Of a stretch of DNA of 42,682 nucleotides, positions 20,102-41,400 are shown in pieces. The translations under genes were made by a program, and so were the position numbers. Within the stretch, counting starts at the first letter, position 1; each line of letters opens with the position of its first letter. The DNA comes from Myxococcota bacterium (GTDB taxonomy: Bacteria; Myxococcota; XYA12-FULL-58-9), in assembly GCA_022703175.1 (NCBI GenBank), contig JAKLEG010000003.1:1-42682 (forward strand). The letters run 5' to 3'. The notes under the pieces were generated by a model. The model did no database searches, was not told the DNA's origin, and was given only the letters and a program-made list of their open reading frames with translations.

Positions 20102-23100
20102 TCAGTCGAGCGTGCTGGCAAACGCTGGTGTCCACGCACCGCTGTCGCCCAACTGCCCATCCAGATTGTCACCCCAACAACGCACGCTACCACCGGACTT
20201 CAAGCCACAGGTGAAGTTGGCACCGGCCGCAATGCCCAACCAGTCGGTGTCAGAGCCCACTTGCATCGGCACCGTTTGCCGATAGGGTGCAAAGGGCACG
20301 CCGAGTTGGCCGTCAAACCCAGAACCCCAGCACCATAAGGTTCCGGCATTCGTGCCGTCATTGCGAATACCGCAGGTGTGCGCATCGCCAGTGGCGAGAG
20401 CCGACCAAGTAGCGTTGGCCGCCAGCACCTGGGTGATAACCACTCGGTCCGTGGTATCGCCCTCGGCCACTCCCAGTTGTCCTGAACCGTTGGCGCCCCA
20501 GCAATAGAGCGAGCCGCTGTTGGCGATACCGCACGTGTGCTGCCCGCCTGCCGACACCTGTGCAAACAAGGGGCTGTTGATGCGATAGGGAGTCGTCTGC
20601 GGTACGCCCATGTCGCCCTTGCCAATCTGACCCTTGTTGTTGTCACCCCAACAGTAGGAATACTGACCTTGCCGAGCGCAGGTGTGATTCCGGCGACTGC
20701 TAAGCCCTAGCCAACTGTAGAGCGTGCCCACGCGGGTCATGGCCGCACCGCCGCCGCCTGTCGAGTTGATTCCAAGCTGCCCAAGCTCGTTGTTGCCCCA
20801 ACAGTACAGGCTACCATCGGCCTTGATGCCACAGGTGTGGGCGTCGCCCGCGGCCACTTCGTTCCAATCATCGGTGCTGATCCACGCGGGCACCGCCCGC
20901 TGCCAATAGCCGGCTTCGGCCAACGCAAGCTGCCCCGACGCGTTGGCGCCCCAGCACCAGAGGTCGGCGTTGTCTTGAATCGCGCAGGTATGACTCGCGC
21001 CAGTCGCCAGCATTCTCCATGAGCCCGTACCATTGTAGACGTATGTAGGCGACATCAGGCTCATGTAGTAGGACCAAGGGTAGGGCTGACCTCCGTCGGG
21101 ATCGGGCCGTTCATTGCCAAGCTGCCCTTGGGCGTCACTGCCCCAACATTGCGCAAAACCCGAGGTCCCGGCGGAGGCGTCCAGGACGCAGGCGTGGTTT
21201 GCACCGGCAACGAGCTTAACGGCTGGAGCCCCGATCGAAATATCGCTTATAGGCACCACGGGGTGTCTGCCAACCCCCTCACCCAATTGGCCCAGGTCGC
21301 GGCTCCCCCAACAAAACACCTTCCCATTGGTGGACAGGCCGCAGGCGTGGTGCGCCCCAAACCCCACGGTTAACCAGCCGGCGTCCGCAGCGGGCAAGGC
21401 AACCGCGTCCATCGGATCGATGCGCGCTTTTTCGCGCATCAACTCGTAATGACTATTACGACCCCAGCACATGTAGGCGTTGTTAGTGCCACCGCACGTA
21501 TGGTAGCCGCCTGCCACGACCGTGGTGTCGCCGTTGCGGGCGAACGTTAGCGTCGGCGTACCAGCACCTGCTTCCCCGTATTTACTGCCGCCCCAACAAT
21601 ACGTGCTGTAGGTGGTGCCGTCGTAACTGATAGCGCAGGCGTGTTCCTCGCCTACCGCCACGCTCTGCCATGTGGCGCTGGCCGGCACGCGCGCCACCAC
21701 ACTCGGCGTATAGATGTTGTTACCGGCGCTGCCAGTGCCTACCTGCCCTACACCATTGGCCCCCCAACAGTACAAATCGCCGGAGTAGTTTAACGCGCAG
21801 GTGAATTGGTTCCCCAACGCTAGCTGACTCACCGGCCCCGGATCTGAAATTTGCACCGGCGGGAAAATGTTGCCGGGTGCCCCTGAACCGACGCCGACGG
21901 CCCCCATGTTGTTGTCGCCCCAACAATACAAGTTGTGATTCACGTCCACGGCGCAGGCGTGGTACTGCCCAACGGCGACCTTCGCCCACTGGGCGCTGGC
22001 GCCAATCTGCGTAGGCAGCAAATCATACGTGACGTTGTTGTAGCCCCAACACCACAGCGTGCCGTAGCTAACTCCAGGTGTCGCCTCGCGAATACCGCAG
22101 GTACGCGTCATCCCGGCACTCACGCTCGCCCAGTCATCGGCTGGCCCCACCCACAAGGGGTTGCCCAAAATGTCGGGAACCTCGTTGTAAGTGCCGCCCA
22201 AAATCTGGTCGAAATAGTTGTCGCCCCAGCACCATAGGCTCTTGTCGCCACCAATGGCGCAGCTGTGCGCAGGCCCAACCGCTAACGCCTTCCAGGTGGT
22301 CCCCGGCATGTTGAAGTTGAATTGTCTGGGTGTGGCGACGTTGCCTACAGAGTCCGTGGCCACGACGGCGAAGTAATGGAGGCCACTCTTTGGCAGATGC
22401 AATACCTGGTTGTTAGAACAGCTGGTGTAGGCCGCAGTGTCGTTGATGTTGTCAGGGTCGACCGCGCAACGGTAACTGCACGGCAACGAGTTGTCAGGGT
22501 CGGTACAGGAAAGCGTCACCGTGACCTGGGTGCCGGTCGGATAGAATGAAGCGGAGACGTTCGGCGGAGTGGTATCGCTCGGGACATAACAAACATTGGC
22601 GTTACATGTCCCGCCGATGGCCACGCACAGTTCCTCGTCGCACCCGCATGATGGAGTGTCGCCGTAGTAGCTGCCCAGATTGCACCCCTGACCACTTGCG
22701 GCGTCGCAACTACCATCGCACGTAGCCTTGCAGACGCGACGCGTCGGCGTGGTGTCAGTGGTGCCATAAACATATGCGCACGCCCCGTTAGGACAGCTGG
22801 CATCGCTACTACACGCCCCCACACAGACTCCCATCGACGCCCCAGCGTTCGGCAGCACGCACACCTTGCCACTCCCGACGCCGCACTCGTTGTCGTTGTT
22901 GCAGGTGCTTGACACGGTACAAGAACCTGATTGGCAGGTAGCTTGGTTGCCCATATCCAGCATGCACTCGTCGGCGTTGCAGTCACACGCAAGCTTGCTC
23001 GTGTCATCGCCGAACACCGGCGTGGTGCCCTGCCAGGTGCAGCGCTCACCCACCTGTGAGCCACAGTCGGCGCTACAGGTCAGGCAAGCAGTGCTGGTGC

Positions 23101-23671
23101 CGCCCGCTACCTGCACCATGGCGCAAGCGGCTTTGGTCTCACAGCCATTGCCTCCGGCCATATCGCACGCCGGGCGGCACTCACGTTTGGTGCCGTTGGC
23201 CACGAGCACACAAACGCCACCCGCGCAGTCATTGTTGCTGGTACACCCTGAGGTGGTGCCGATGCAGCTCAATCCCGTGCCGTCGTAGTAATCCACGACG
23301 CTGGCATTCGTAGCCGCGCAGCCGTTATTGCAGCCCGTACAGGGCTTGCACGCTTGCACATTCCCCTGCCGCCCTTTGACAAAAATGCAGGCGGCCTGAT
23401 TGCCACAAGTCACCCTGGCACAACCCACGTGACAAACACCCTGGTTGTTGGAGGCCACGGTGCAGACACCCAAGGGGCCGCACTCGGCATCCGAGCCGCA
23501 ATTGAGCGTCGGCACGCAAACGCCGGTGCCTTGGCCATACGCGCTGCAAACATGGTCATCGGCGCAGTCATCATCTGAATCGCAGGCGAAACTGGCGGTA
23601 TCGGGATCGGGCACATCCACAGTGCAGGCAGCGGCAAACACAACGATCAACAATGCCAGCGATACTCTCAC
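20102..23671 (-). CDS. Large RCC1-repeat (14 blades, two 7-bladed propellers) secreted lipoprotein with N-terminal Myxococcus-type Cys-rich repeats
   Basis: GTG start with GGGGG upstream. MRVSLALLIVVFAAAC (lipobox). About 400 aa of Cys-rich modules (CDSDDDCADDHVCSAYGQGTGVCVP...). An Ig/CHB_HEX_C-like segment (PPNVSASFYPTGTQVTVTLSCTDPD). Then 14 CWG-x-N-x-x-GQLG RCC1 repeats (e.g. SLYCWGNNELGQLG, TLWCWGSGFDGQLG, SVRCWGDNLDGQLG). Confidence 0.75.
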   Translation of the reverse strand: MRVSLALLIVVFAAACTVDVPDPDTASFACDSDDDCADDHVCSAYGQGTGVCVPTLNCGSDAECGPLGVCTVASNNQGVCHVGCARVTCGNQAACIFVKGRQGNVQACKPCTGCNNGCAATNASVVDYYDGTGLSCIGTTSGCTSNNDCAGGVCVLVANGTKRECRPACDMAGGNGCETKAACAMVQVAGGTSTACLTCSADCGSQVGERCTWQGTTPVFGDDTSKLACDCNADECMLDMGNQATCQSGSCTVSSTCNNDNECGVGSGKVCVLPNAGASMGVCVGACSSDASCPNGACAYVYGTTDTTPTRRVCKATCDGSCDAASGQGCNLGSYYGDTPSCGCDEELCVAIGGTCNANVCYVPSDTTPPNVSASFYPTGTQVTVTLSCTDPDNSLPCSYRCAVDPDNINDTAAYTSCSNNQVLHLPKSGLHYFAVVATDSVGNVATPRQFNFNMPGTTWKALAVGPAHSCAIGGDKSLWCWGDNYFDQILGGTYNEVPDILGNPLWVGPADDWASVSAGMTRTCGIREATPGVSYGTLWCWGYNNVTYDLLPTQIGASAQWAKVAVGQYHACAVDVNHNLYCWGDNNMGAVGVGSGAPGNIFPPVQISDPGPVSQLALGNQFTCALNYSGDLYCWGANGVGQVGTGSAGNNIYTPSVVARVPASATWQSVAVGEEHACAISYDGTTYSTYCWGGSKYGEAGAGTPTLTFARNGDTTVVAGGYHTCGGTNNAYMCWGRNSHYELMREKARIDPMDAVALPAADAGWLTVGFGAHHACGLSTNGKVFCWGSRDLGQLGEGVGRHPVVPISDISIGAPAVKLVAGANHACVLDASAGTSGFAQCWGSDAQGQLGNERPDPDGGQPYPWSYYMSLMSPTYVYNGTGSWRMLATGASHTCAIQDNADLWCWGANASGQLALAEAGYWQRAVPAWISTDDWNEVAAGDAHTCGIKADGSLYCWGNNELGQLGINSTGGGGAAMTRVGTLYSWLGLSSRRNHTCARQGQYSYCWGDNNKGQIGKGDMGVPQTTPYRINSPLFAQVSAGGQHTCGIANSGSLYCWGANGSGQLGVAEGDTTDRVVITQVLAANATWSALATGDAHTCGIRNDGTNAGTLWCWGSGFDGQLGVPFAPYRQTVPMQVGSDTDWLGIAAGANFTCGLKSGGSVRCWGDNLDGQLGDSGAWTPAFASTLD
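20105..22309 (-). repeat. Coding tandem array of 14 RCC1-type repeats (about 50 codons each)
   Basis: Counted 14 C-W-G motifs each followed by a G-Q-[LVI]-G-type motif in the translation. Confidence 0.6.
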
Positions 23672-27294: not shown

Positions 27295-28374
27295 CTAGAT
27301 GCCGGAGTTATCGACGTAGATGTACATGTCGCTACGAGTATTGATGTTGGTGGTGGGTACCACGCGCAAAAAGTCGGCGAAACGATAACCCGCAAACACC
27401 GGGTCATCCTTGATCGCCTGTTCTAGTTTGTCCGACCTCAAGCGCAACTGCACTTCGATCCCCACCACGTCGTCGTTGGTAGCGATGGCCGCATCGGCGT
27501 TGAACGTGAGGGTCGACACGGTGCTATCGGCCACACCGTCGGCGTTGGTGTCCAGCAAGAAACGAAAGCGCAAGCCAATCACGTCACCTGCGGCGATGCT
27601 CAATGAAGCGTCAGCCGCCGTGGTGGCCCGCATGTCGATGTTGGAAGCCAATGGATAGCGTTTGCTGTTGTCCTCCCAGTACAAATAGGGGTGCGCGGTA
27701 TTGGTGCAGTCCACCCCAAAGCCGCTCAGTTGCGCTTTGTAAATGTTGGTCGCGCGCGCGCTCACCGTGGCCAAGGTGGACGTCGGCCCCAAATCCAACG
27801 CGGTCTGCGCCGCCGACCAGTTGGTGTCGCCTACCACAAACGACGTGGCATTCAACGCTCGGGTGGCGCTGAGCCGCCCCATGCCCAAACCACCGCTCAT
27901 GGCCGATTGATAGAAAAACATCCAGGCCCCGGCATAGATGATTTTGTCGTGACCGGCCCCGCCCGGTGACGGGTCTGCCGACGCCAGGTTCACCGTGAAC
28001 GGCGCGGTGGCCCCGGTGGTGGTGGCCAGGTTCCACTTGCGCACGAGGTCGCGACTAGCGACCTCCAACTTGGGCGTGTTCACGGTGCCACAGCTCTCGG
28101 CATTCGCCGCAAAGCTCTTGATGCCGTACATGCGCGGTAGCCCCAGGCCGGTCGCACCCAGCTTGTCTTCCAACAGGGTCATCGCGTTCCGGCCGCTGCG
28201 TTGGATATCGTTGCGGTCGAAGGCGTCGGAGTTGGTTTTGGCTTGAATGTAAAGGAACGAGAGCGCGCCACCCAAGACCTCCATCACCACCACCAGCGTG
28301 ACCATCATTTCGATAAGGGTCATGCCGCGCTCGTGGGCGCTGCTTCGCCCATCGCGTTTGGGCGCGTCGGTCAT
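27295..28374 (-). CDS. pilW: Type IV pilus minor pilin PilW-like (prepilin-type N-terminal cleavage/methylation domain)
   Basis: Leader MTDAPKRDGRSSAHERG followed by the class III signal G|MTLIEMMVTLVVVMEVLG (Glu at +5). 359 aa, the PilW size range. Start overlaps the pilV stop (ATGA). Confidence 0.65.
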   Translation of the reverse strand: MTDAPKRDGRSSAHERGMTLIEMMVTLVVVMEVLGGALSFLYIQAKTNSDAFDRNDIQRSGRNAMTLLEDKLGATGLGLPRMYGIKSFAANAESCGTVNTPKLEVASRDLVRKWNLATTTGATAPFTVNLASADPSPGGAGHDKIIYAGAWMFFYQSAMSGGLGMGRLSATRALNATSFVVGDTNWSAAQTALDLGPTSTLATVSARATNIYKAQLSGFGVDCTNTAHPYLYWEDNSKRYPLASNIDMRATTAADASLSIAAGDVIGLRFRFLLDTNADGVADSTVSTLTFNADAAIATNDDVVGIEVQLRLRSDKLEQAIKDDPVFAGYRFADFLRVVPTTNINTRSDMYIYVDNSGI

Positions 28375-28865
28375 TTGTATTTGCCTCCAAGCACCGAGAC
28401 TGCTCGCTCCATTCGACTACCGCCCGCAGCGTTGTCCATCCAGGTCACCTTGACGGTGATGGTTTTGAAGGTGTGCTCGTTATTCTCCACCACCGACCAG
28501 GTACGCCAAAAGTTACCGTCAGCATCACCCGCCGCACCCGTGGCGGTGTTGTGAGGGCCTAACAGGCCGCCGTTCGCACCCAGGTTGCGATTGCCCGGCT
28601 CCACGTGGTCGTCGGCCGGATCGGTGGCCGAATCAGGCGCCAAATCGGCATGGTCGTAGGGCAGCTGCATTAACATATCCAGGCGGTTACGTGCCAAAAG
28701 CGTTGCGGCGGTCACGTGGGTGGAGACGCCGGTGCCTTCGCTGCCGGAGATCATCAAGCGCAACAACCCCAAGGCGCCAATGGTGAACACGGCCATGGCG
28801 ATCATCGCCTCCATCAAGGTCATGCCGCGTTCGCGATATCGCAGGCTCGGTCGTGTCATCATCAT
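28371..28865 (-). CDS. pilV: Type IV pilus minor pilin PilV-like
   Basis: MMMTRPSLRYRERG|MTLMEAMIAMAVFTIGALGLLRL with the prepilin motif. 164 aa, PilV-like size. Lies between the GspH-like and PilW-like genes, as in fimU-pilV-pilW arrangements. Confidence 0.65.
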   Translation of the reverse strand: MMMTRPSLRYRERGMTLMEAMIAMAVFTIGALGLLRLMISGSEGTGVSTHVTAATLLARNRLDMLMQLPYDHADLAPDSATDPADDHVEPGNRNLGANGGLLGPHNTATGAAGDADGNFWRTWSVVENNEHTFKTITVKVTWMDNAAGGSRMERAVSVLGGKYK

Positions 28866-28866
28866 G

Positions 28867-29526
28867 TCACATCGCCCCGTCGAACATGCGCACGTTGCCG
28901 GTGGCCCCTACGTAGGCCACAATCTTCACAATCCCCTCACCGGAGGAGGTTGGGTCGTAGAGCATCACGGCGCCCCCCAGCGGCGGGTCGTTGCCATCTG
29001 AATCGAAAATGCGGCCATCCGCTTCGAACCACAACGTGCAAGTGGTGACTCCAGATGCGGGTGGCGCGCACCATCTATCGTGCTCTAGGTCGTTGTACGG
29101 TACCGGCAGCGACGCGGCGACACCGGCCGCTGGCCCGAACGCGACATAGGGCGGAATAGATTGGCCCGCGTCGTTCTCGCTCGTAGAGCTCGGATAACGT
29201 TCCACCAACTTGTCGGTGCTATCACAGGTACCGTTGCTGTCGCTGTCTTGCCGCACCACCCAGTTGCGCGCCGTGCGATCGATCACCAAGCAATGACGCG
29301 CCCCTGTGGCAGTTGCCTGCGCCTGGGCCGTCATCAAGGCGCTGAACAACTTGCGCGCCGTACCGTTCAACACGCTGCGATGATACATGCCGTTCAACTT
29401 CGGGCCGGCCAGCATCGACACAATGCCGATGAGAGCTACCACCAACATCAGCTCAATCAGCGTAAAGCCGCGCGCCCCAAGGCGCCGCCGCACGCTATTG
29501 GCAGGTATTTGCATGCAAACAGTCAT
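28867..29526 (-). CDS. GspH-domain minor pseudopilin (FimT/FimU-like)
   Basis: ATG 29526 with GAGGAG 5 nt upstream (track start 29628 is a spurious extension). MTVCMQIPANSVRRRLGARG|FTLIELMLVVALIGIVSMLAGP with the classic GFTLIE prepilin motif. 219 aa. Its 5' end overlaps the 3' end of pilY1 by about 30 nt. Confidence 0.65.
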   Translation of the reverse strand: MTVCMQIPANSVRRRLGARGFTLIELMLVVALIGIVSMLAGPKLNGMYHRSVLNGTARKLFSALMTAQAQATATGARHCLVIDRTARNWVVRQDSDSNGTCDSTDKLVERYPSSTSENDAGQSIPPYVAFGPAAGVAASLPVPYNDLEHDRWCAPPASGVTTCTLWFEADGRIFDSDGNDPPLGGAVMLYDPTSSGEGIVKIVAYVGATGNVRMFDGAM

Positions 29527-32500
29527 GGACGCTCCTCGATACTGGGAACCGCATGATCTCCTCAGCGCTGTCCAGTTGTAGGCCGCTGGCCGTGGTCGCT
29601 TGCACCCCGGAGTCGCTGCCACCCGCAAACAACGTCGGCGTCGCTACACCGTTGGCAACCCCCACCGACACCATGGGCGCGGTGGGCACACCTTCGCCTA
29701 AGTCCAGAATATCACTGGCATTTGAGACGTTATCGCCGTTCCAATCGTAAAACTTGCCGCTGATGTAGTGCCTGGCGTGCAAGCGCGCGACTCCTTTGAT
29801 CGTGGCGCTGCAAGAATCGCTGGTGCCACCACACGCCACTGTTGGCAAGAAAGTCGAGTACAACGCATAGCCTGCGAAAATATTGAACGGTGTCGCGGCT
29901 TTCTCACCTGCCGTTAGTCGAACGAACCAGCCGCGGCTTTGGTCGGTTGCCGCGTCGGGCACGTCCAAATCGGCCAGATCTGATTCTAGACATGGGCGTG
30001 AGCCGCTCATGCCTTGGCATGCGCCGACGTTCATTGCGTACAACCGCTGTTGGTCGGTGCACAGATAGCCGTTGATGGTTGCGTTGCGCGTGGAGCTCGG
30101 GATCAAGGTGTCTCGATCACCGGTGGCCAAGATGATGCGAACCTGGCCGCTCGGCAGTTGGGTGATGGTGGGGTTAAAAAAGAACGGCCGGCGCTGATAC
30201 TCGTTGGCATCCAAGACGCCATCGGCATCGCCGCCTACCGAGTCAGTCACGATCAACGTCGAGTTCGTCTTGAACATCACTTCAACGTTCATGGAATAGC
30301 GACCTGAGGTGGCCACAAGTGGCGCCGTTAAACTTGGAGAAATGAGCCAGATCTGCCCGCCATGGTCAGGTGCCACGATCTGCTGGATGTACGAATTGAC
30401 ATCGGCCGTCATGTAAAACACCGGCGTCGCCGGGAACGAGTAGTTCATCGTCGCCGTCGCCCCGGAGCCGCTCTTTTGCGCCATCCACACAATGTCACCA
30501 GTCCAGGCGTCCACCATGAACAGCGCCCGACCCTTGCTGTCGAGGTAGTCATAGCCCGCTGAAAGCATTGCAACGAAACGGTCATAACCACCGGGCGTCG
30601 CAGCATTGTTGTCGCTGTCCACCCAGAGAGGCCCGATCGACGCGGGTGCGGGCGAGACGTCCAACCAACTCTCCCCCATCAACGCGCTTACCGCATTGCC
30701 GGACAGGTCGGTTTGATTCGCCTGCGGGAACTGCCACAGCAACCTTGGTGCCGTGATGTCCGTAACATCCAATGCGACATAGGTGTGTCCGCCCTGGCGA
30801 TGCCCGTAGATCGCCACGGTCTTCCACTTGTTCTTGTTTGCGGCGACATCCATGTCGGCGGTGCCACCCATCCAGATGTCACGCACCTCCACCGAACCGT
30901 CCACCAAAAACTTATGGGTATTCAGACTACAGAGACCGCCGCCGGGATCGCATAGGGTCTTGAGCTTGGGCAACATCTCGGGGCTCACAAACGCCCAAAG
31001 CTCCTGGCCTTCGGCGCCGCCCCGCCCAGAGTCGTAGTACTCACCACGGCTGCTGTTCCAGGTCTCCAACAAGAACGCGTGCAACATGCCGTCGTTGGCG
31101 CCCACCAACATCACCTTGGGGCGGGTAGCGTTGTCGGCCATGAAGGCTTGATACGACTCGCTGTCGTAGCGAGTGCCGCCCAACAGCCCTTTGTCGTTAT
31201 TCGGGTCGGGAGCTACCACGACGTTGGGAATCGAATGGAAGATATCCCCCAGCTTCCACCAGCCATCCACCAAGTTGCCGGCGCCGTCGCGCATCGTGTT
31301 CAGGTTGCGATCCTCAGTGCTGTTGCCATCCCCATCGGCATCGCCGCTGTCGAGGCCACGGAAGAAGCTGACAATCTTGCTGGCATCGGCCACGACGCCA
31401 CCCACATCCAAGGCCGTGACAAACGCCGTGCCGTACGTGCCGTTGGTCAGGCTGGCGACAGTAAAGGGAATCACATCGTCGTTGGTAAACGTGTTCGACG
31501 CGCCACCATGCTCCACCGCGGTGTAAATGACGCGCGAAGGTGGCGTGGTAGAACCTTCGGCGCCGGTGCGATAGCACTGCGTGACGTTGGTATTGGCTTT
31601 GTCTTGGGTGATCGACCCCAGGGCATCGGCAGCGTCGCCAGCCAAGCACAGCGCCGCGTCCCACAACGGCGTGGACAATAAGTTGCCCTCATCGTCGAAC
31701 GAGATGTCATTGCCGTTGGCGTCTTGAATGCAAACCGTGGCGTCTGAATCGCTGCAGGTACAACCCGTGCCCAGGTTTTCGTCGCAGGCGATGTTGGCGA
31801 ACACATGCCCTTCCCACAGCGGGAAGTGAATCGTGGGCCTAAACATAGCGTTCTGCAGACTGGCGGCCGCCTTAAGCCTGGTCGTGGCAACCGAGGGCGA
31901 GGTAAAGCCACGCGCCCGCTTCACGATCTCGGTGACGATATTGGCCAATGCTTCACGCAGCTCATTGGAGTTCCGGGCCGGAATGCAGCGGCCACCGCCC
32001 GCGGTAGCGGTTTGCTCCAAAATGCCGGCGCACTTGCTCTGGTCGGTGCTGTCCAACAGGCCGTAGCTTACGGCGTAGGTGTTCACCAACTGGTCGTTGG
32101 CAATGTCGGTGCGGTGGTCGATGCGGGTGAGCGCTTTGGCCACGTCATCCAGCCAATAGCCGTTGTTGTTGAAGTAGCCGTCGCTGATGGTCGGGATTTT
32201 GCTCTTCACGAACGGCACCCCAGAGGCGGAGGAGGCATCGGTGTTCGGAAAGCCGTCGGTGATGATGACCACAAAGTTGTTGGCATCCCCGCAGGTGGAC
32301 ACCGTGGAGTAGTCACACATCGGCGTGTTGGCACCGGTGGATCCCGAATAGTACTTACCGACTGCGTCGAGCGCTTTGGCGAGCGGCGTGCTGTCGTTAA
32401 ACTCCAGCGTGTTTTCTAGGTAATTAATGAGCTGCGAATCGTTTTGTGGAAAGCACTCGGTAGACGGATCACCGTCAAAACAATCGGTGCCGGTGGCCTG

Positions 32501-34231
32501 CGAGCACGGGGGCTTGATAGCAAAGGCAATCGAGCTTTTGCCCACATCATCGAAGTCAGCCACGCCCACGCGGCTGTCCCCGGCCATGTTCTTGATAGTG
32601 TCTTTAAACACCTTGATGAGCGAAATCCCCTTGGGCGGATAGAAGTTCATAAAGTCGCCCAACGCCACGTAGCTGTGCGAGCTGCCAGTGGCAGACCCCA
32701 GGCCGCGGATGCAGCCCGGCCTCTCACAGTTACCGGCATTGCAAATATCGGGGGCCGTACAATCGCTGTTCACGCTGCACGATTGGCAGCTGACTGAGCC
32801 GCAACCGGTGGTGCGACACTTGCTAGAACTGCAACTGTCGGTGCCGGTGCATTGGCTGCTCGCGGTGCAACCTTGGCAGTGTTTGTCGGCGCAGCCGGCG
32901 GTGCGGCACTTGCTGGAGCTGCAGGTGTCGGTGCCCGAACACTCGCCATTTGTGGAACAGCTTTGGCAGCTCGCGGTGGTGCAGGTGCCCGAAAAACAGG
33001 CCTTGGGCGAGGTGCACTGGCCGCTGGCCCCAACGGTGCAGGCTTGGCACTTGTCGCAGCCAGGCAGACGACACAGCCCTCCGGAGCAACTCTCCCCCGA
33101 CGTGCATTGGCCGTTATTTGTGCAGTTACCGCAGGTGCCGTTGCTTCGGCACCGCCGACTGACACACTGGCTGTTGCTGCTGCATGCGCCGCCGTTGGCC
33201 ACCGCGCCAATGTTGCAAGAGGGGCAATAGCCGCTAGCGCACTGAGCGTTGCCGGTGCAAGCAGCGTTGATTGCGAACCCGGAGGTGGCGGCGGTGACGC
33301 AGTTGCGGCTGTCGCAGTCGGTGTCAGCGGCGCACGTTGCGCCCACGGCACCAGCGCCTTGCCCGCACCCGGTGGCCGGCGCGCAATAACGGCTATTGCA
33401 ATCCGTATAGGTGCTGCACACCGAGCCATTGGCATACGTGCCGGCGCCGCAGGCCGCCCCCGACACGCAACGCCGGCTCTCGCAATCGCTGTTGTCGTCG
33501 CAAAAGCTACCATTCCAGGCAGTGCCTTCGCCGCAGCCAAAGCACATCCCCATCGGGTCGCCGCTGGCGCAGCTGCTCTTTTCCCAAAAATAGCCTTGGG
33601 TACGCAGGCTGTAGATGCAGCGCGAGCGCTGATAGCAATCGGAGATGCCACTGCACTCATCTGCAATCGCATCTTCGAGCTTGGCCTGAGTGGTGCTGCC
33701 GCTGCCAGTGTTCAGCAAGTCCCAAGGGCTGTGCAGTGAGTGGTCCCAGGTGGTCCACGGCGGAAAGATGTCGTCGTTGGCGCTCGAACCCCGCTCATCA
33801 AACACTGGGTAGGGCCCAAAGCCGCGGTAACTGTTGGGGCTCGTGCGATCGAACAAGTAGCGATAGCCATCGCTCGCGCCATCCCCGGTAACATCAGGGC
33901 CCATAAGCGCCGCCAGCGCCGGGCTCTCGCACACGGTGGAGGTGTTGGGGGCGCTACGCGCCCTAAGTCCGCTTGAGCCACAATACAACGAGCCGTCTAA
34001 CTCCTCGCACGGAATGTTGTTCATGGAGCCCGAGCTATCGAACAAGAAGACGATGTTGGGAGGCGGGGTGTTGCCGCCGCTGGAACCACCCACCAGGAAC
34101 AAATCCAAATCGTCGGCCTTGGCGCCACGAAAATCGCTGAACGCCACAAACTCAAAGGTGAAAATCGTCAGGCCAGCCAAGGCAAAAAATCGCAAGTCGC
34201 GCGGCAACTTCGAGGGTCGTAGCGTACGCAT
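29495..34231 (-). CDS. pilY1: PilY1-family type IV pilus tip adhesin/priming protein (1578 aa) with N-terminal VWA domain interrupted by a large Cys-rich insertion, and C-terminal PilY1/PilC beta-propeller domain
   Basis: ATG overlaps the pilX stop (TAATG). VWA MIDAS motif IVFLFDSSGSM (aa 61-70) and the later VWA strand FVVIITDGFPNTD (aa 654-666) are about 590 aa apart. In between lies a module of about 300 aa with roughly 80 Cys (e.g. SCQSCSTNGECSGTDTCSSSKCRTAGC...CTGTDSCSSSKCRTTGC). The C-terminal region carries the PilY1/PilC hallmark MLVGANDGMLHAF and propeller-like repeats. Confidence 0.8.
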   Translation of the reverse strand: MRTLRPSKLPRDLRFFALAGLTIFTFEFVAFSDFRGAKADDLDLFLVGGSSGGNTPPPNIVFLFDSSGSMNNIPCEELDGSLYCGSSGLRARSAPNTSTVCESPALAALMGPDVTGDGASDGYRYLFDRTSPNSYRGFGPYPVFDERGSSANDDIFPPWTTWDHSLHSPWDLLNTGSGSTTQAKLEDAIADECSGISDCYQRSRCIYSLRTQGYFWEKSSCASGDPMGMCFGCGEGTAWNGSFCDDNSDCESRRCVSGAACGAGTYANGSVCSTYTDCNSRYCAPATGCGQGAGAVGATCAADTDCDSRNCVTAATSGFAINAACTGNAQCASGYCPSCNIGAVANGGACSSNSQCVSRRCRSNGTCGNCTNNGQCTSGESCSGGLCRLPGCDKCQACTVGASGQCTSPKACFSGTCTTASCQSCSTNGECSGTDTCSSSKCRTAGCADKHCQGCTASSQCTGTDSCSSSKCRTTGCGSVSCQSCSVNSDCTAPDICNAGNCERPGCIRGLGSATGSSHSYVALGDFMNFYPPKGISLIKVFKDTIKNMAGDSRVGVADFDDVGKSSIAFAIKPPCSQATGTDCFDGDPSTECFPQNDSQLINYLENTLEFNDSTPLAKALDAVGKYYSGSTGANTPMCDYSTVSTCGDANNFVVIITDGFPNTDASSASGVPFVKSKIPTISDGYFNNNGYWLDDVAKALTRIDHRTDIANDQLVNTYAVSYGLLDSTDQSKCAGILEQTATAGGGRCIPARNSNELREALANIVTEIVKRARGFTSPSVATTRLKAAASLQNAMFRPTIHFPLWEGHVFANIACDENLGTGCTCSDSDATVCIQDANGNDISFDDEGNLLSTPLWDAALCLAGDAADALGSITQDKANTNVTQCYRTGAEGSTTPPSRVIYTAVEHGGASNTFTNDDVIPFTVASLTNGTYGTAFVTALDVGGVVADASKIVSFFRGLDSGDADGDGNSTEDRNLNTMRDGAGNLVDGWWKLGDIFHSIPNVVVAPDPNNDKGLLGGTRYDSESYQAFMADNATRPKVMLVGANDGMLHAFLLETWNSSRGEYYDSGRGGAEGQELWAFVSPEMLPKLKTLCDPGGGLCSLNTHKFLVDGSVEVRDIWMGGTADMDVAANKNKWKTVAIYGHRQGGHTYVALDVTDITAPRLLWQFPQANQTDLSGNAVSALMGESWLDVSPAPASIGPLWVDSDNNAATPGGYDRFVAMLSAGYDYLDSKGRALFMVDAWTGDIVWMAQKSGSGATATMNYSFPATPVFYMTADVNSYIQQIVAPDHGGQIWLISPSLTAPLVATSGRYSMNVEVMFKTNSTLIVTDSVGGDADGVLDANEYQRRPFFFNPTITQLPSGQVRIILATGDRDTLIPSSTRNATINGYLCTDQQRLYAMNVGACQGMSGSRPCLESDLADLDVPDAATDQSRGWFVRLTAGEKAATPFNIFAGYALYSTFLPTVACGGTSDSCSATIKGVARLHARHYISGKFYDWNGDNVSNASDILDLGEGVPTAPMVSVGVANGVATPTLFAGGSDSGVQATTASGLQLDSAEEIMRFPVSRSVHDCLHANTCQ

Positions 34232-34740
34232 TAGTTCACCCCTGGGAAGCCAAAGCGAAAGATGAGCTGCATCTCGCGGGTGGGGATGTTAGGGCCGCTA
34301 CAAATCGCCGAGGCCGACACCACATGCACGCTGTTGGTGCTACCGCCAGCGCCGCGCCGTTGGTTGGTTAACGCCGTGCCTGCCAACAGCCCGCTCATAT
34401 CCACCTGGGCGCTGGTAAGCACCACCACCGGGTCAACGCCGGTGTCTGCATAGTGGCCGGCCTTCAAGGTCACCGCCGGGCCGTTACTAATCTGATATGT
34501 GGTATTCACCGCGTTGGCCGACGTAGCGTCGGGCCACTTGGCGCGGATCTGCGCCAACGCCGCCTGCGCGCAGGCATCACCCACCTCGCGGCCGCGGAAG
34601 CCCTGCGTGCTATTCAACGTGCTGTTGGTCACAGCGATGGCGGCCAAGCCACCCACCAACATCACCACCATCACCACCACCACCACGATGAGCGCAATAC
34701 CGCGTTCTCTGTTGGGAATCGGGCGCCGGGTATGTTGCAT
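34231..34740 (-). CDS. pilX: Type IV pilus minor pilin PilX-like (PilX N-terminal domain)
   Basis: ATG 34740 with GGAGG 6 nt upstream (track ORF starts further up at 34815). MQHTRRPIPNRERGIALIVVVVVMVVMLVGGLAAIAVTNSTLNSTQGFRGREVGDACAQAALAQ matches the PilX_N pattern (ERG-[IS]-AL-hydrophobic helix...). 169 aa. Its stop overlaps the pilY1 start. Confidence 0.6.
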   Translation of the reverse strand: MQHTRRPIPNRERGIALIVVVVVMVVMLVGGLAAIAVTNSTLNSTQGFRGREVGDACAQAALAQIRAKWPDATSANAVNTTYQISNGPAVTLKAGHYADTGVDPVVVLTSAQVDMSGLLAGTALTNQRRGAGGSTNSVHVVSASAICSGPNIPTREMQLIFRFGFPGVN

Positions 34741-34765
34741 CAAAAGCCTCCAACCTAGGCGTAAC

Positions 34766-34786
34766 TGATCACAAATCGTGCCACCG
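34766..34786 (-). promoter_or_regulatory. Possible sigma-54-type -24/-12 element (TGGCACG-N4-TGTGA) upstream of pilX
   Basis: Minus-strand sequence ccggTGGCACGatttGTGAtcag about 25-45 nt upstream of the pilX ATG. It matches the GG(-24) half well and the GC(-12) half poorly (TTTGT versus TTGCA). The surrounding 240-bp intergenic region is relatively AT-rich. Confidence 0.15.
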
Positions 34787-34980
34787 GAGCATCTCGTATT
34801 TGTAAGCGAAATCAACTATTTGGCGAGCGGCGCCAAACCCCACTACGCAAACATTGCGAGCTATTCGCTAGCTTTTGCTGGGTGCTAAGGTGGGCGTACG
34901 TAGGCAGAGAGAACCAAGCTGTGACGGGCTGGTTGCGGTGACACAATCGGATTTTAGTTCGGTCGATCGAGTTGTTCGTG

Positions 34981-35873: not shown

Positions 35874-36866
35874 TCAGCCCTCACCCTCATGAGGTCCTTT
35901 GTCGGCAGGCGACACTGAACGCCCAATGGAGCTTCGCATATCGGTGTCGGCCATCACGTTCTTCATGTTGTAATAGTCGAGCACGCCCAGCTTGCCACTG
36001 GCCAGCGCCCCGGCAATCGCCATGGGCACTTGTGCTTCGGCTTCCACCACGCGCGCACGCATCTCGTACACGCGCGCCTTCATTTCTTGTTCCGCAGCCA
36101 CGGCCAGTGCGCGGCGTGATTCGGCGTGCGCCTGCGCGATTTGTTTGTCGGCCTCGGCTTGCTCGGTTTGCAGCTTGGCGCCGATGTTGGCACCTACGTC
36201 CACGTCGGCAATGTCGATAGACAAAATTTCAAACGCCGAGCCGGCATCCAGGCCTTTGGCAAGCACAGTCTTGGAGATGCGATCGGGATTCTCAAGCACT
36301 TCTTTGTGCGATTCGGCCGAACCGATGGTGGAAACGACGCCCTCACCAACGCGCGCAATGATGGTCTCTTCGGTCGCGCCGCCCACCAAACGCTCCAGGT
36401 TGGTGCGCACTGTGATGCGAACCAGGGCCGACAACGAAATGCCGTTCTTTGCCATGGCCGTGATTTTGGGCGTGGTGATGACCTTTGGAAGCACGCTCAT
36501 CTGCACTGCTTCGAGAACGTTGCGGCCGGCCAGGTCGATGGCCGCGGCGCGCGCAAACGGCAACGGAATGTTGGCCTTGTCAGCCGAAATCAACGCTTGC
36601 ACCACAAGCCCGACGTTGCCGCGTGCCAAGTAGTGCGCTTCCAATTGGTCGGTGGTCACCTGCAGGCCAGCCTTCAACGCCGCAATCCGCCCGCCAACAA
36701 TCACTGACGGCGGCACTTTGCGTAGCCGCATTCCCACGAGCGAAAAGATTCCGACATGCGCGCCCGAGGTCAATGCCTGTACCCACAACCCCACCGGCAC
36801 GTAGTAGAGCACCGTGAAAAACGCGACCACGCACACCAGAACGATCGCCACAACCAAGATATCCAT
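35874..36866 (-). CDS. floA: Flotillin-like protein FloA (YqfA/UPF0365 family SPFH protein)
   Basis: ATG 36866 with AGGTG 5 nt upstream (track start 36869 is GTG one codon earlier). [53 protein letters not shown]... closely follows the FloA consensus (N-terminal TM, then IGLWIsAlaaGV.vgi..LvGMRLRrV.P). About 330 aa. Confidence 0.8.
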
Positions 36867-36898
36867 CACCGCACCTCTGCGCTAAATATTGCGCGTTT

Positions 36899-38425
36899 TC
36901 AGAGTGTTACAGCTCTTACCACCACCCGATTGCCATCCACCTGAATGACTTCTACCGGGGTATCTTTTTCGATGAAATCGCCCAACGTCACCACGTCCAC
37001 ACGTTTGCCACCCAAGAGCGCAATACCTGCGGGCCGCAGCACAGATGCCGCCATGCCGCGTTCGCCCAACAGTGACTTCTCGCGCTCGTGTTGGCTGCCG
37101 TAGCCGTCCTTCACCGTCTCGGCGGCGCCCAAAATAATGCGTTGGCCGAGCTTGGTTTTGGGAAAGTATTTGCCGAACACCACCGCGACCGCGCCCAGTG
37201 CCACCATCAGAATCAGGAGGCTCCAGGCAATTTGACTGGCCGCACTCTGCAAATAGCCCAGGTCGTAGCTGACGCCCACCGGCAGAGGCACGTTGACGAG
37301 CGCCATCCCCAGTGCCACCAACATCGCCACGATGCCGGCCACGCCCACGACGCCAAATCCGGGGATCACCAAGAGCTCCACAAGCAACAACGCAAAACCC
37401 ACACCGAACAACAGCAGTTCTTCCCAACCGGCTAAGTTGGCCGTGTACTGGCCGAAAAAGAACGTGATGAGACACAACACGCCGACAATTCCGGGAACAA
37501 TGTGGCCCGGGACGAAAAACTCCATCATGAGTGCTGCGACACCAATGGTCATCAGCAATGAGCTGACCATGGGGTCAGTGAAGAATCGCGCCAGCTTCTC
37601 GCCCCAGTCGGTGTCGTTTTGCACGCATTTGGCGCGGCCCAGGTTCAGCAACCCGATCGCGGCTTCGGCGGTATCGGCACTGGCATCCGCCATCTTGAAC
37701 GCCAACGCTTGGGTGCTGGTGAGTGTCACGAGCTTGCCTTTCTCGTTCACCCCTTGCACTTCCAGGCTCGCGTCGACCATGGCTTCGGCGATATCGGCGC
37801 GACGGCCTTTGGCCTCGGCGGTGGCGCGCATTTCGGCGCGCATGTAGCTCACCACCTTCTCGCTCGTGGGTTTAGCCTCACCGTTTTCAGCGAGCTCGAT
37901 AGGTGTTGCAGCTCCAATGGAACCACCGGAGCTCATGATGATGGTGTCGCAGGCCAGCGAAATCAGTGCGCCGGCACTGATGGCGCGATGGTCAATGAAG
38001 GCCACGGTGGTGGCCTTGGAGGTGAGCAAGGCATCGCGGATGCGCACGGCGGCATCGACGCGACCGCCGAAGGTGTTGATGCGCAAGAAGATCAGGTCAC
38101 GCGGCCCGGCCTGTTTAACCACACGCTCGACAAACGGCGCGAGACCCAAATCGATGGTGCCATCAATGGGCACCTCGTACACCGTACGGCCGCTGCCCCC
38201 TTCCGGGTCATAGCCGCGAAGCGTTGTGCTGGCACCGGTGACAGGTTGGGACTCACCGGCAGCGGCCCCGAGGCCCAAGAGCAAAATGTAGGCAAGTAAT
38301 CGCGTTGACACGAAAGCGAAGCTAGCGGGTCTAGAGGGGCGGGGCAATGCGGTAGCAGCGCTGTGTTCGTACGCCGACACGGGCTTCAGTAAACTGGTGT
38401 GCTGCGTGACACATGGTACCATCAC
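36899..38425 (-). CDS. NfeD-family long form (YqeZ-like): ClpP-class serine-protease-like domain, multi-TM segment and C-terminal OB-fold
   Basis: 508 aa. N-terminal protease-like domain (VYEVPIDGTIDLGLAPFVERVVKQA...TFGGRVDAAVRIRDALL...AISAGALISLACD), 4-5 TM helices, then a C-terminal beta-rich domain (VTLGDFIEKDTPVEVIQVDGNRVVVRAV). Ends 32 nt upstream of floA. The true start is uncertain: an internal GTG near 38311 would give a cleaner signal peptide. Confidence 0.7.
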   Translation of the reverse strand: MMVPCVTQHTSLLKPVSAYEHSAATALPRPSRPASFAFVSTRLLAYILLLGLGAAAGESQPVTGASTTLRGYDPEGGSGRTVYEVPIDGTIDLGLAPFVERVVKQAGPRDLIFLRINTFGGRVDAAVRIRDALLTSKATTVAFIDHRAISAGALISLACDTIIMSSGGSIGAATPIELAENGEAKPTSEKVVSYMRAEMRATAEAKGRRADIAEAMVDASLEVQGVNEKGKLVTLTSTQALAFKMADASADTAEAAIGLLNLGRAKCVQNDTDWGEKLARFFTDPMVSSLLMTIGVAALMMEFFVPGHIVPGIVGVLCLITFFFGQYTANLAGWEELLLFGVGFALLLVELLVIPGFGVVGVAGIVAMLVALGMALVNVPLPVGVSYDLGYLQSAASQIAWSLLILMVALGAVAVVFGKYFPKTKLGQRIILGAAETVKDGYGSQHEREKSLLGERGMAASVLRPAGIALLGGKRVDVVTLGDFIEKDTPVEVIQVDGNRVVVRAVTL

Positions 38426-41400
38426 CTAGCGATGTGCCGACCTAACGTTCTGACGCTGGTTGCGGCGGGTTTCACGCTACCTGCCTTCATCAACTGTGGT
38501 CAGCCGCCACCCTACGTGGTTTTGGACGTTGTCGACCCGACACTCGCGGCACACGGCTTCGCAACCCTTACGATCGAAACCGCCAACGGCCTGCACGACG
38601 ACATCGTACCCGACCGACATGAATTCCCTTTTAGTATCACGGTCACAAGACCTACGAAGGGGGCTCTGCCCCTAACGGTGTATGCCAAAAGTCCCGACAA
38701 CGCGGTGTTGGCGCTTGGGAAAGCGACGGCTGACTTTGCTCGTTCCAAGCACCCGTCGGTGCTGGTGCAGCTCGCGCGTCCCTGCAGCGCCGCGGTCGAT
38801 TGCGACGACCATCTCTATTGCAACGGCGTGGAGCTCTGCGACAACGGCATGTGCCTCGCCGGTATCCCTCCGTGCTTGGCGAACTTCGGATGTGTGACCG
38901 CAACTTGCCTGGAAGGCAGCGAAGGCACAGGCAGTTGCAGCACGCTTGTCGACCACAGCCAATGCCCACCCGAGTACTACTGCAATGCGATGGCGGGTTG
39001 TGTGCCCGGCCGAGGTTGCGAAACTGACCTGGATTGTGACGACGGGTTGTTCTGCAACGGCAGCGAAATTTGCGACAACGGCTTGTGTGTCCCTGGCTTG
39101 GCTCTGGAGTTTGCCGACAGCGACAGCTGCACTGTGGATGGCTGCAATGAGGCCGAAGGCGTGGTGCATGTCCCAGACGTTCGGTCGGATGGAAACCTCT
39201 GTACGTTGAGCGGTAACGGTCGCGAAATCTGTGTGGCACGCTTAGGGGGCTGTGTTGAGTCACGCTGTGGTGATGGCTACCAAGATGCCGAGGCGCTGCC
39301 GGCTGAGGCCTGCGACGATGGCGTGGCCAACGTTGATAGTTGGGGACTCGAACGGCATTGCCTAGCCGATTGCAGCGGCAATGCGCCTTACTGTGGCGAT
39401 GGCACGGTCAACGGCACTGAGACCTGCGACGATGGCAACCGGGTGTGGGATGGAAACGATTGCAATGCGGCATGCAGCTGCGTCGGCATCGCTTGCGGAG
39501 TGAGCGCATGGCACGGCGTGGGGGGCTCGGACTATGGCCCCTCGACAACGCGCATCTTCGCAGCGTCGGATTCACCGTACGGCATTTGGGCACCCTATGG
39601 CGGACGCGCTGACTATGTGGCACTGGCCAGCGGTACCGACGGCTCACTTTTCGTGGCCTCGACGGCGGAGGTTGAGTGGAGCTACGCTCAAATCTTTGTC
39701 CACGAGTTCAACGGAACTCAGTGGACGCCATTGTTCACCTACCCGTCCCTTGGCATCGGCACTTACATTGAGTGGGTCGACCACGTGTCGATCGCGGTGG
39801 ACAGCGAGAATCGGCCCGTCGTTGTCTGGGACGGATACCAATCAACCTACGGCTACCAGACGTTCGCGAGCCGGTTTGACGGTATGGAATGGGTGAACAT
39901 CGGCGCCGGCTCGATGGAGGGGCAAGGGATCTCGGCATCGCCCCATGAGACTGAGGAATCAACGATTGCGGTCAATGCTGATGGCGACATTGTCGTTGCC
40001 TGGGCAGGGACCGCCAACGACAACATTGGCCTGAAGAGGTTTGACGGCTCCGCCTGGGTGGCTATGGGCGCAGGCTCCGACGGCGTCGGGGGAATCAGCA
40101 ACACAGGTGTAGGTGTCGCTCGGCCGGCATTGGCATCAGCAGCCAATGGTGCTTGGTTTGTGGCTTGGGCCGATCGGATAGGTGGTGCTCCCTCGGTGTA
40201 CCTGCGTCGCTGGAACGGCTCTGCCTGGGTGGAATTTCCCGCTGGTTCGGCCTCGGGTGATGGGTTGGGCGATGTTGTTTGGAACACACCAATTGCGCTC
40301 GTCGCCGACAGCGGCGGCGACCCCTGGGTGGGTTGGATAAGCGGCAGTAGCTACGCGTTCTATGTGAAACACTGGGATGGCGCGGCATGGGTCGAGGTTG
40401 GAGGCTCCGCAACTGGCGACGGTATCAGCGGCACCACTCCGGTCGATAGTCCACGGCTTACGATTCGGGAGGATGGTTCTCCCGCAGGATTTTGGGCGGC
40501 AAATGACGCGATTCTGGCGCGCGGATTCGATGGTTTGGCGTGGACAGCTTTCGGCACGGGGTCCGACACCGAGCCGGGGATTGTTGACACGTGCGCTTTC
40601 ATCGACTTCGACGTGCTCCCCAACATGAACCTCGGGACAGTGCTCGCCACGACCTCCAATTGCCGTTTGAACATCGAGCTACGCCTGAACAGCGGCGGCG
40701 AATGGCAACCGCTCCCGGGGAACATCGCGGGCAAAGGAATTAGCGAAACGAATTCGTACGCGTCAGACCCTTGGCTGTTCTTGGAGCCTTCCGGTACGCC
40801 CGTGGTGTTTTGGCTCGACGATCGGTCAGGGGTTTCACAGCTCTATGCAAAACGGCACGGCGCCGCCGGATGGTCGGCGTTCTCAGAAGGTTCGGCCAGC
40901 GATAACGGTATTAGTAACGCCGTTGTTGCGGCTCGCTCGCCCGTTGTGCTGACGGACCCTCTGGGGCGCTATGTGGTGGCGTGGCTCACGAACCCATCGG
41001 GAGCGCTGCATGTCTATCTAAAGCGCTTCGATGGCGTCGCCTGGCAGGAGCTTGGCGGATCGGCAAGTGGCACCGGTGTAGATGGAGAGAGCAGCTCGGT
41101 GGGCGGATATAATGTCGGAATCGGTCCCGACAACAACCCTGTTGTGACCTGGAGCCATTCGTCAGGCAATCAGGGCGACGCCCTCGCGGTCAGTTGGTTT
41201 CACGACGATACGTGGACGCGGTTGCCGACTCCTTTTGACACGGACAACCGATGGGCCATTTCACCAGCGTCGGCAAGTGCCACGGACGCGTTGGGTCGTT
41301 TGGTGGTCGTCGCGCTGCTGGAGTCACGACTGCGATTCGCCGCATGGGATGGTACTGTCTGGCAGCAGCTCCCGGATATGTGGAGCGAAAGCTCCTTTGA

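Follow-up and report, generated by a model that had tools for sequence, protein, structure and literature searches.

What a type IV pilus adheres to, and what it senses, depends on PilY1; the subject here is a PilY1 homolog encoded on the minus strand of contig JAKLEG010000003.1 from a Myxococcota bacterium (assembly GCA_022703175.1), in which a tandem array of Cys-rich units interrupts the von Willebrand factor A (VWA) domain; the whole stretch of 42,682 nucleotides (nt) that was analyzed is referred to as the window, and all nucleotide positions are those of the window. In Myxococcus xanthus and Pseudomonas aeruginosa, PilY1 and the minor pilins prime pilus assembly and remain at the tip, where the N-terminal domain is the outermost part (PMC13190605). 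The VWA-type PilY1 clades of the myxobacteria have median Cys counts of 30–41, which were read as disulfide stabilization (Mahanta et al., 2026; PMC13190605). Like the protein described here, with its probable signal peptide, members of the M. xanthus PilY1.3 clade and of clades 1.5–1.7 combine a signal peptide, an N-terminal VWA with a MIDAS (an adhesion site that depends on a metal ion), and a C-terminal PilY1 propeller, and the Myxococcota VWA-type proteins are likewise linked to pilX, pilW, pilV, and fimU and raised in Cys content (PMC13190605). One of the Myxococcota proteins, Archangium L008, aligns with the present PilY1 through the MIDAS strand, the sub-domain that follows it, and the rest of the VWA. 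The Myxococcota clade medians of 30–41 Cys nevertheless compare with 78 here, and typical members have 6–8 residues where this protein has a 300-amino acid (aa) array. The words repeat, insertion, and inserted are not used in the main text of that study (PMC13190605).

Insertions into pilus-tip VWA domains have been described in other lineages. The VWA scaffold of the PilY1/ComC tip adhesins is modified by lineage-specific insertions of different origins, and in Acinetobacter baumannii ComC a finger of ∼90 aa lies in the VWA, and mutants that lack it are impaired in adhesion, in twitching, and in the uptake of DNA (Iruegas et al., 2023; PMC10374093). ComC is thus similar to the present protein, itself a putative tip adhesin, in being a type IVa pilus tip adhesin into whose VWA scaffold a lineage-specific segment is inserted; however, the ComC finger is antiparallel beta and Tyr-rich, whereas the insert here is a tandem array of ∼300 aa with 50 Cys and 5 Tyr. 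In P. aeruginosa PA14 PilY1, the VWA spans aa 48–368 and holds seven of the 11 Cys (Webster et al., 2022; PMC8806160); it is also oversized, with concentrated Cys that are functionally important, but the seven Cys do not form a repeat array. TraA, the kin-recognition receptor of M. xanthus, carries TIGR04201 repeats of ∼22 aa with three invariant Cys that are thought to be oxidized, and the repeats have been proposed to form a rigid stalk presenting a PA14 head (PMC3325183). TraA therefore shares short tandem Cys repeats in a secreted protein, and is itself a myxobacterial surface recognition protein, but its repeats run linearly from the PA14 head to a C-terminal anchor, whereas those described here form an excursion inside another domain. 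A MIDAS VWA is also found at the pilus tip in RrgA, GBS104, SpaC, PitA, Mfa5, and Streptococcus sanguinis PilB, which belong to other pilus systems (sortase, type V, and Gram-positive type IV) and have neither a PilY1 propeller nor Cys-repeat arrays. In RrgA and GBS104, inserted “arms” adjoin the MIDAS face.

The general principle, that is, VWA inserts in tip adhesins and Cys-rich myxobacterial PilY1 clades, is already known, and the present insert is an unusually large case of it. An earlier note on this window, made from the sequence alone, had regarded a Cys-rich insertion in the VWA as a “distinct way” of diversifying the pilus tip, which is too strong given the published VWA insertions (PMC10374093) and Cys-rich clades (PMC13190605) and the similar arrays found in relatives P0013, P0016, and P0015. 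A tandem array of ten Cys units as an inserted element, the exact junction, and a series of one to ten units were not found described in the literature, nor were beta-helix and possibly lectin-like modules sharing this junction. The parts of the gene and protein are as follows.

29495–34231, minus strand: pilY1 open reading frame (ORF), 1578 aa, start ATG, intact, with the stop codon at 29495–29497.
34115–34231, minus strand: probable Sec signal peptide, aa 1–39, as read from sequence and model (basic N-region, hydrophobic helix at aa 11–31, then AKA/DD).
34019–34063, minus strand: VWA strand beta1 and MIDAS loop, PNIVFLFDSSGSMNN (D65, S67, S69), placed by a model strand at aa 59–64 and by alignments.
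33575–34018, minus strand: family-conserved insert sub-domain, aa 72–219, ending in CxxxxxCxxxxRCIYSLRTQGYF, with a predicted local distance difference test score (pLDDT) of 73–89 over approximately aa 90–230.
32669–33574, minus strand: Cys-repeat array, aa 220–521, with 50 Cys and ten tandem C-x5-C-x4-C cores.
31907–32668, minus strand: rest of the VWA, aa 522–775, comprising alpha1, beta2, beta3, alpha2, alpha3 (T615), beta4 (TDG, D659), alpha4, beta5, alpha5, beta6, and alpha6.
29498–31906, minus strand: C-terminal PilY1 region, aa 776–1578, containing the signature of the beta-propeller, GANDGMLHAF (aa 1044).

The identification as a PilY1 homolog made in the earlier note was upheld by a match to PF05567 (T4P_PilY1) above its cutoff (31.4 versus 28.1 bits; aa 1018–1171, window 30719–31180), by a match to the P. 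aeruginosa PilY1 C-terminal domain (PDB 3HX6, E = 5.1e-5), which is the sole solved relative by sequence, and by the minor-pilin neighbors. The motifs that it quoted were also all recovered, specifically DSSGS at aa 65, VVIITDGFP at aa 654, GANDGMLHAF at the position listed above, and a pair of 15-mers at aa 433 and 463, and its Cys-rich segment at window 32711–33646 corresponds to aa 196–507. To our knowledge, the structure of the N-terminal domain has been solved for no PilY1.

The N-terminal half of the protein is, on the evidence of sequence and model, a single VWA from which the chain leaves the core for ∼460 residues between the beta1/MIDAS loop and alpha1. This stretch comprises a sub-domain of ∼150 aa, shared with the wider PilY1.3-type family, and the lineage-specific array of ∼300 aa. 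The native sequence matched the Pfam VWA profile below the cutoff (15.4 versus 23.8 bits) and only over profile positions 49–123 (aa 589–669), because the insert breaks the alignment (VWA models tested were PF00092 and PF13519). In a splice test, aa 531–790 alone scored 13.6 bits over profile positions 48–123, and addition of the 23-aa MIDAS strand (aa 50–72) raised the score to 25.1 bits, above the cutoff of 23.8, with a continuous match over positions 1–123; when two smaller loops were also trimmed, the scores were 34.1 bits for VWA (positions 1–122) and 31.3 bits for VWA_2 (cutoff 27). The MIDAS is complete, with D65, S67, S69, T615, and D659 all present, and in an alignment of 18 sequences D65, S67, and M70 were invariant and S69 and D659 nearly so, with the same pattern for D65, S67, M70, and S69 in an alignment of 15 sequences. 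An AlphaFold2 (AF2) model of aa 1–800 had a low mean pLDDT of 57.9 because the Cys array is poorly predicted, and reached 70–89 in beta1 (aa 59–64), the sub-domain (approximately aa 90–230), and aa 520–775. Within it, aa 534–774 showed the canonical order of VWA elements, giving with beta1 a predicted alpha/beta Rossmann-like fold with a six-stranded sheet, and Foldseek searches against the PDB returned VWA matches at a probability of 1.0. Splice test, MIDAS, model, and Foldseek thus place DSSGS and ITDG in one VWA, as had been supposed, and not in two separate domains.

A split of this kind is usual in PilY1. The non-Cys second half of the VWA region (aa 508–800) was used as a query against 1.84 billion representative proteins and recruited 339 matches at E ≤ 1e-3, mostly of PilY1 size. 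Among the 115 matches with both anchors, the MIDAS Asp and the TDG Asp were separated by a median of 287 aa (5–95%, 173–551; maximum, 1037), compared with 594 aa in the PilY1 of JAKLEG010000003.1; survey relatives of Pseudomonas size had ∼260–330 aa and 4–7 Cys in this interval. The baseline of 100–140 residues, against which the split had been judged abnormal, holds for a canonical VWA and is therefore the wrong comparison for PilY1. The split itself is real, as seen in the splice test, but it is the family norm and not a peculiarity of this protein; judging from these sequences, extra sequence between beta1 and alpha1 is carried by every PilY1 VWA. The present protein stands apart in Cys content, ranking second by count (61 Cys from MIDAS to TDG) and first by density among 118 relatives with a median of seven, in a sample that is biased because some members were retrieved via shared Cys-rich words. 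A homolog search with the Cys array cut out yielded only three new matches, all distant, and the family is therefore rare.

The array has a precise insertion point. In a MAFFT alignment with typical Myxococcota PilY1.3-type proteins (Archangium violaceum L008, Archangiaceae metagenome-assembled genome (MAG) L019, P0082, P0083, and P0032), it falls exactly between GYFWEKS (aa 213–219) and LGDFMNFYPPKG (aa 524–535). The sub-domain of the typical relatives ends in C-x2-C-L-x-T-K-GY[FYW], and 6–8 residues further on G-x-F-[LF]-x-F-Y-[AS]-P-R starts alpha1, so that the insert length of ∼300 aa given in the earlier note is correct relative to these proteins. The counterpart of the sub-domain is shorter and divergent in L008, P0082, P0083, and P0032, whereas the sub-domain of this protein (aa 72–219) is 59% identical to that of its closest relative, P0002.

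Among close relatives, which are 45–60% identical, the site holds from one to ten Cys units. The length from anchor to anchor is 57 aa in P0022, 91–93 aa in P0025 and P0004, 160 aa in P0003, 265 aa in P0002, and 308 aa in this PilY1. C244, C250, and C255 of the first unit and C461–C482 of the ninth are kept in all six family members, and the intervening units come and go; relative to P0002, the differences amount to exactly two whole-unit indels (aa 315–337 and aa 394–418). Identity to P0002 at non-Cys positions is 41% in the array and 59–70% in the sub-domain, the rest of the VWA, and the C-terminal region. Over this four-fold range of length, each of the six members has an even number of Cys from anchor to anchor (50, 42, 22, 12, 26, and 32), as expected for disulfide pairing; such parity is predicted if the Cys pair within the insert. 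In P0020 and P0006, which belong to the close subfamily, a Cys unit of another kind, CGNGxC-x-GE-x4-CPxDC, partly fills the site. With its steps from one unit to ten, the series constitutes a natural experiment on insert size versus tip function.

P0004, which has the shortest array at the VWA site, carries in addition a second Cys-repeat block of ∼65 aa in a loop of the C-terminal propeller (alignment columns 1515–1583), and Cys units can therefore colonize other surface loops.

The ten cores of the array begin at aa 244, 272, 300, 325, 350, 376, 406, 431, 461, and 491, with a period of 25–30 aa and three to six Cys in each unit. Cys make up 17.6% of aa 230–507, and the remainder is rich in Ser, Gly, Ala, Thr, and Asn, with only two His and five Tyr in the array as a whole (302 aa); CxxC occurs eight times where units adjoin (aa 230, 336, 367, 392, 395, 422, 452, and 482). 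CxxCH motifs are absent, by which heme binding was ruled out. The figure of roughly 80 Cys given for the module in the earlier note is that of the whole protein (78), and the module has 53 (aa 193–507), or 50 when counted between the anchors (aa 216–523). Its description of near-identical internal duplicates is correct for the two 15-mers, which match at 13 of 15 positions, but not for whole 30-aa units, the best pair of which is 57% identical in protein, 67% in DNA, and 53% at third codon positions. Tandem Repeats Finder detected no repeat array in the DNA of this segment, and together with the divergence of the units this indicates that the duplications are old. The array was modeled with low confidence (pLDDT 23–62 in the model of aa 1–800, and a mean of 38 in a dedicated AF2 model of aa 363–512).

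The array has no family in Pfam, and it had no matches to Pfam or, by sequence, to the PDB. The only curated family with any match is TIGR04201 (Myxo_Cys_RPT), which scored below its cutoff (14.5 versus 25 bits) when the Cys segment was scanned alone, over three stretches, the best of which covered positions 1–20 of 22; no match was obtained when whole family proteins were scanned, and P0016 reached 21 bits. The three-Cys cores of the array recur at 25–30 aa as compared to ∼22 aa in TIGR04201, and any correspondence of their Cys positions rests on this weak match to the hidden Markov model (HMM). Repeats like TIGR02232 (myxo_disulf_rpt), a family named in the earlier note, were not found, as this model matched neither the PilY1 protein nor its Cys segment, although it passes in the neighboring gene at 38399–41878 (23.4 versus 20.8 bits). 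A query with the array only returned no matches, the parent protein included, most likely owing to composition-bias filtering, and is uninformative. A 21-position HMM built from the ten units recovered only the parent protein from all fetched proteins and six-frame translations; it was too short and over-fitted and was replaced by regular-expression counts and inspection by eye. The same type of unit was nevertheless located elsewhere in the window, in the following gene.

20102–23671, minus strand: RCC1-like beta-propeller protein, 1189 aa (PF25390, 322 bits), with ∼66 Cys in its first ∼400 residues.

The N-terminus of this RCC1-repeat protein holds the PilY1-array-type units CTSNNDCAGGVC and CSSDASCPNGAC. 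Occurrence in an unrelated protein indicates that secreted proteins of this lineage share the unit as a general building block, and that it is not specific to PilY1. The possibility that the Cys segment is a known autonomous domain common to PilY1 proteins was thus borne out in part, in that the unit is autonomous and occurs in the RCC1-repeat protein as well. Besides the RCC1-repeat protein, three more Cys-repeat proteins are encoded within the window.

The adjacent genes at 38399–41878 (plus strand) and 41806–42682 (plus strand, running off the window) encode proteins with similar N-termini, in which a conserved lead-in is followed by units of the type CxDDxxCNGxExCxxGxC; the first of them, of 1159 aa, has a weak Dicty_CTDC match and is otherwise without a Pfam domain. 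A 599-aa protein encoded at 8394–10193 (minus strand) contains ∼14 copies of C-x-DG-x-DNDGDG-x2-D...DP-x-C and 31 Cys, with no Pfam match at E ≤ 0.01, and the C-x-DG-x-DNDGDG-type repeat looks, from its sequence, like a calcium-binding repeat.

Other relatives carry other modules at the site occupied by the array. With both anchors kept, P0024 contains at aa 281–411 a left-handed beta-helix (matched by Hexapep of Pfam at 55 bits), P0007 has Cys units together with a Hexapep helix (62 bits, aa 470–578), and P0027 has ∼740 aa between the anchors without an assigned domain. P0017 and P0029, in which the anchors are also kept, have segments resembling carbohydrate-binding modules (CBMs), although only P0017 matches Pfam, and there below threshold (CBM60, 17 bits, aa 311–391). 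In P0114, thrombospondin type-3 repeats (TSP_3, 58 bits) start at aa 115 in the gap between MIDAS and alpha1, directly after the MIDAS strand. A hexapeptide beta-helix within a pilus-tip VWA, as in P0024 and P0007, is unusual in itself.

Large inserts were also found at a second site in PilY1-type VWA domains, which runs from alpha1/beta2/beta3 to the MIDAS Thr. At this site, P0013 carries ∼900 aa of Cys repeats (aa 210–1130), and its 99 Cys from MIDAS to TDG exceed the count in the present PilY1. The second-site insert of P0016 (aa 180–820) is built of the unit G-N-x-C-x2-N-A-D-C-x4-C, which is of the same type as in the present array, and L044 from Geomonas sp. Red32 also has a large insert there (ORF aa 176–588). 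Cys-repeat arrays in a PilY1 VWA thus occur in other lineages as well, specifically in P0013, P0016, and P0015.

An insertion point beside the MIDAS that is defined in sequence, and that takes from 6 to >700 residues of unrelated modules, makes the N-terminal diversity of PilY1 testable. A broader proposal is that the RTQGYF/alpha1 junction might be a general cassette for module display, with the Cys array as an evolvable scaffold in which gain and loss of units and changes of surface would give new tip specificities; this is put forward tentatively, as a possibility that we rate as doubtful. If true, a single display site would receive, depending on the lineage, a Cys array, a beta-helix of hexapeptides, lectin modules resembling CBMs, or repeats of the thrombospondin type.

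The reading favored here, with moderate confidence, is that this PilY1 sits at the tip of a type IVa pilus and has a single MIDAS VWA, and that a disulfide-bonded array beside the metal site extends the contact surface and evolves by whole units. By analogy, the protein would be located at the tip with the homologs of PilX, FimU, PilV, and PilW. Once the protein has been exported by the Sec route, pairing of the array's 50 Cys would yield ∼25 disulfides and a structure that is rigid and resists proteases. The array leaves and rejoins the VWA at one point next to the MIDAS face, and therefore could not serve as a linear spacer between domains; it would instead form a protrusion or cluster beside the metal site. 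In that position, it would most likely form or extend the substrate-contacting surface of the tip, in a logic comparable to that of the ComC finger, and gain and loss of whole units together with rapid change at non-Cys positions could tune what the tip touches. Several points weigh against this reading. The protein and its close relatives are known from metagenome sequence alone and the host is uncultured; the disulfides are inferred, as are the rigidity of the array, its shape, and its position relative to the MIDAS face, since its fold is not predicted with confidence. Membership of beta1 in the sheet was read from the order of elements in the model and not from strand contacts, the even Cys parity would also fit four-Cys metal sites, and the fast evolution of non-Cys positions could reflect relaxed constraint no less than adaptive tuning.

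Three other explanations would each account for part of these observations. The array could be a mechanical element, that is, a disulfide-clamped VWA module that sets tip extension or force on retraction, or that senses force, by analogy with the role proposed for Cys147 and Cys152 in the VWA of P. aeruginosa PilY1, the latter of which affects adhesion force signatures and cyclic di-GMP signaling (PMC8806160); its placement within what would be the load-bearing domain agrees with such a role, as does its even number of Cys. However, an excursion that rejoins at one point lies off the direct force path from the N- to the C-terminus unless a ligand binds the array itself, a range of one to ten units among relatives that are 45–60% identical is hard to square with a tuned device, and relatives hold unrelated beta-helix and CBM-like modules at the same site; a mechanical role is thus considered improbable. 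The same small chance is given to the view that a repeat common in the secretome expanded in a permissive surface loop, where it is tolerated as largely neutral and has no particular role other than leaving the VWA undisturbed, despite the presence of the unit in the unrelated RCC1-repeat protein, the abundance of Cys-repeat proteins in the window, a site that accommodates from 6 to >700 aa, and the quick change of non-Cys positions. The best pair of units is 57% identical in protein and 53% at third positions, as is the case for old duplications, yet the Cys framework of every unit and the reading frame have been kept and the Cys total is even in all six relatives, which indicates purifying selection on a folded structure. 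ComC, moreover, needs a VWA insert of comparable kind for its function.

The even Cys total is also compatible with four-Cys sites, and with the eight CxxC motifs at unit boundaries it raises the alternative that clusters of Cys serve to coordinate Zn, Cu, or Fe-S and do not form disulfides, so that the tip would be a metal-sensing or redox-active surface. This is regarded as very unlikely: CxxCH is lacking and His occurs only twice in the 302 residues; the leader is probably of Sec type and the adhesin family extracellular; the nearest repeat families, TIGR04201 (TraA) and TIGR02232, are regarded as disulfide repeats; and small disulfide modules typically show such a composition, rich in Gly, Ser, Thr, and Asn, together with a regular spacing of the C-x5-C-x4-C kind. 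A disulfide-bonded contact surface beside the MIDAS remains the preferred reading.

Outside the VWA, two EF-hand-like acidic loops were noted in the C-terminal region as motif matches only, DADGDGNSTED at aa 964–974 (window ∼31310–31342) and DADGVLDANE at aa 1335–1344 (∼30200–30229); the second lies within the propeller and, from its sequence, may be the counterpart of the calcium site of P. aeruginosa PilY1. The pilY1 gene is flanked by four genes for minor pilins.

34231–34815, minus strand: PilX-like minor pilin gene, with weak matches to pilV/GspK-type N-terminal models and with size and position conserved in relatives.
28867–29514, minus strand: FimU/GspH-like minor pilin, 215 aa as called by the Joint Genome Institute (JGI), with matches to PF12019 (GspH), PF07963 (N_methyl), and TIGR01708.
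28371–28865, minus strand: PilV/GspI-like minor pilin, with a match to N_methyl and matches to TIGR01707 and TIGR02523 below their cutoffs.
27295–28374, minus strand: PilW-like minor pilin, 359 aa, with the TIGR02532 prepilin N-terminal motif (20.4 bits versus a cutoff of 16.3) and with size and position kept in relatives.

The order of the operon on the minus strand is therefore pilX-like, pilY1, fimU/gspH-like, pilV/gspI-like, and pilW-like, and an identical order of minor-pilin genes flanks the homologs P0003 and P0005. The TAA stop codon of the pilX-like gene shares one base with the ATG of pilY1 (TAATG, window 34229–34233), and the fimU-like gene overlaps the 3′ end of pilY1 by 20 nt (29495–29514); the two overlaps suggest translational coupling. 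Just upstream of the pilus operon and on the same strand, a FloA flotillin-like gene (35874–36869, minus) is paired with a gene for an NfeD-family membrane protease (36899–38425, minus), with no evident link to the pilus.

Mis-assembly or a wrong reading frame was ruled out, as six independent assemblies share the frame and the Cys columns. An identical protein in the public collection, P0001, is encoded on a JGI metagenome contig (Ga0116241_10007776, sample 3300010429), and the nearest named relative, P0003, derives from a MAG labeled “Deltaproteobacteria bacterium” (GCA_016218825.1). The TIGR02232 match in the neighboring gene and the resemblance to Archangium PilY1 point tentatively to a Myxococcota-like lineage. 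Among the matches listed from GTDB species-representative genomes, the closest was from a Deltaproteobacteria MAG, at 30% identity.

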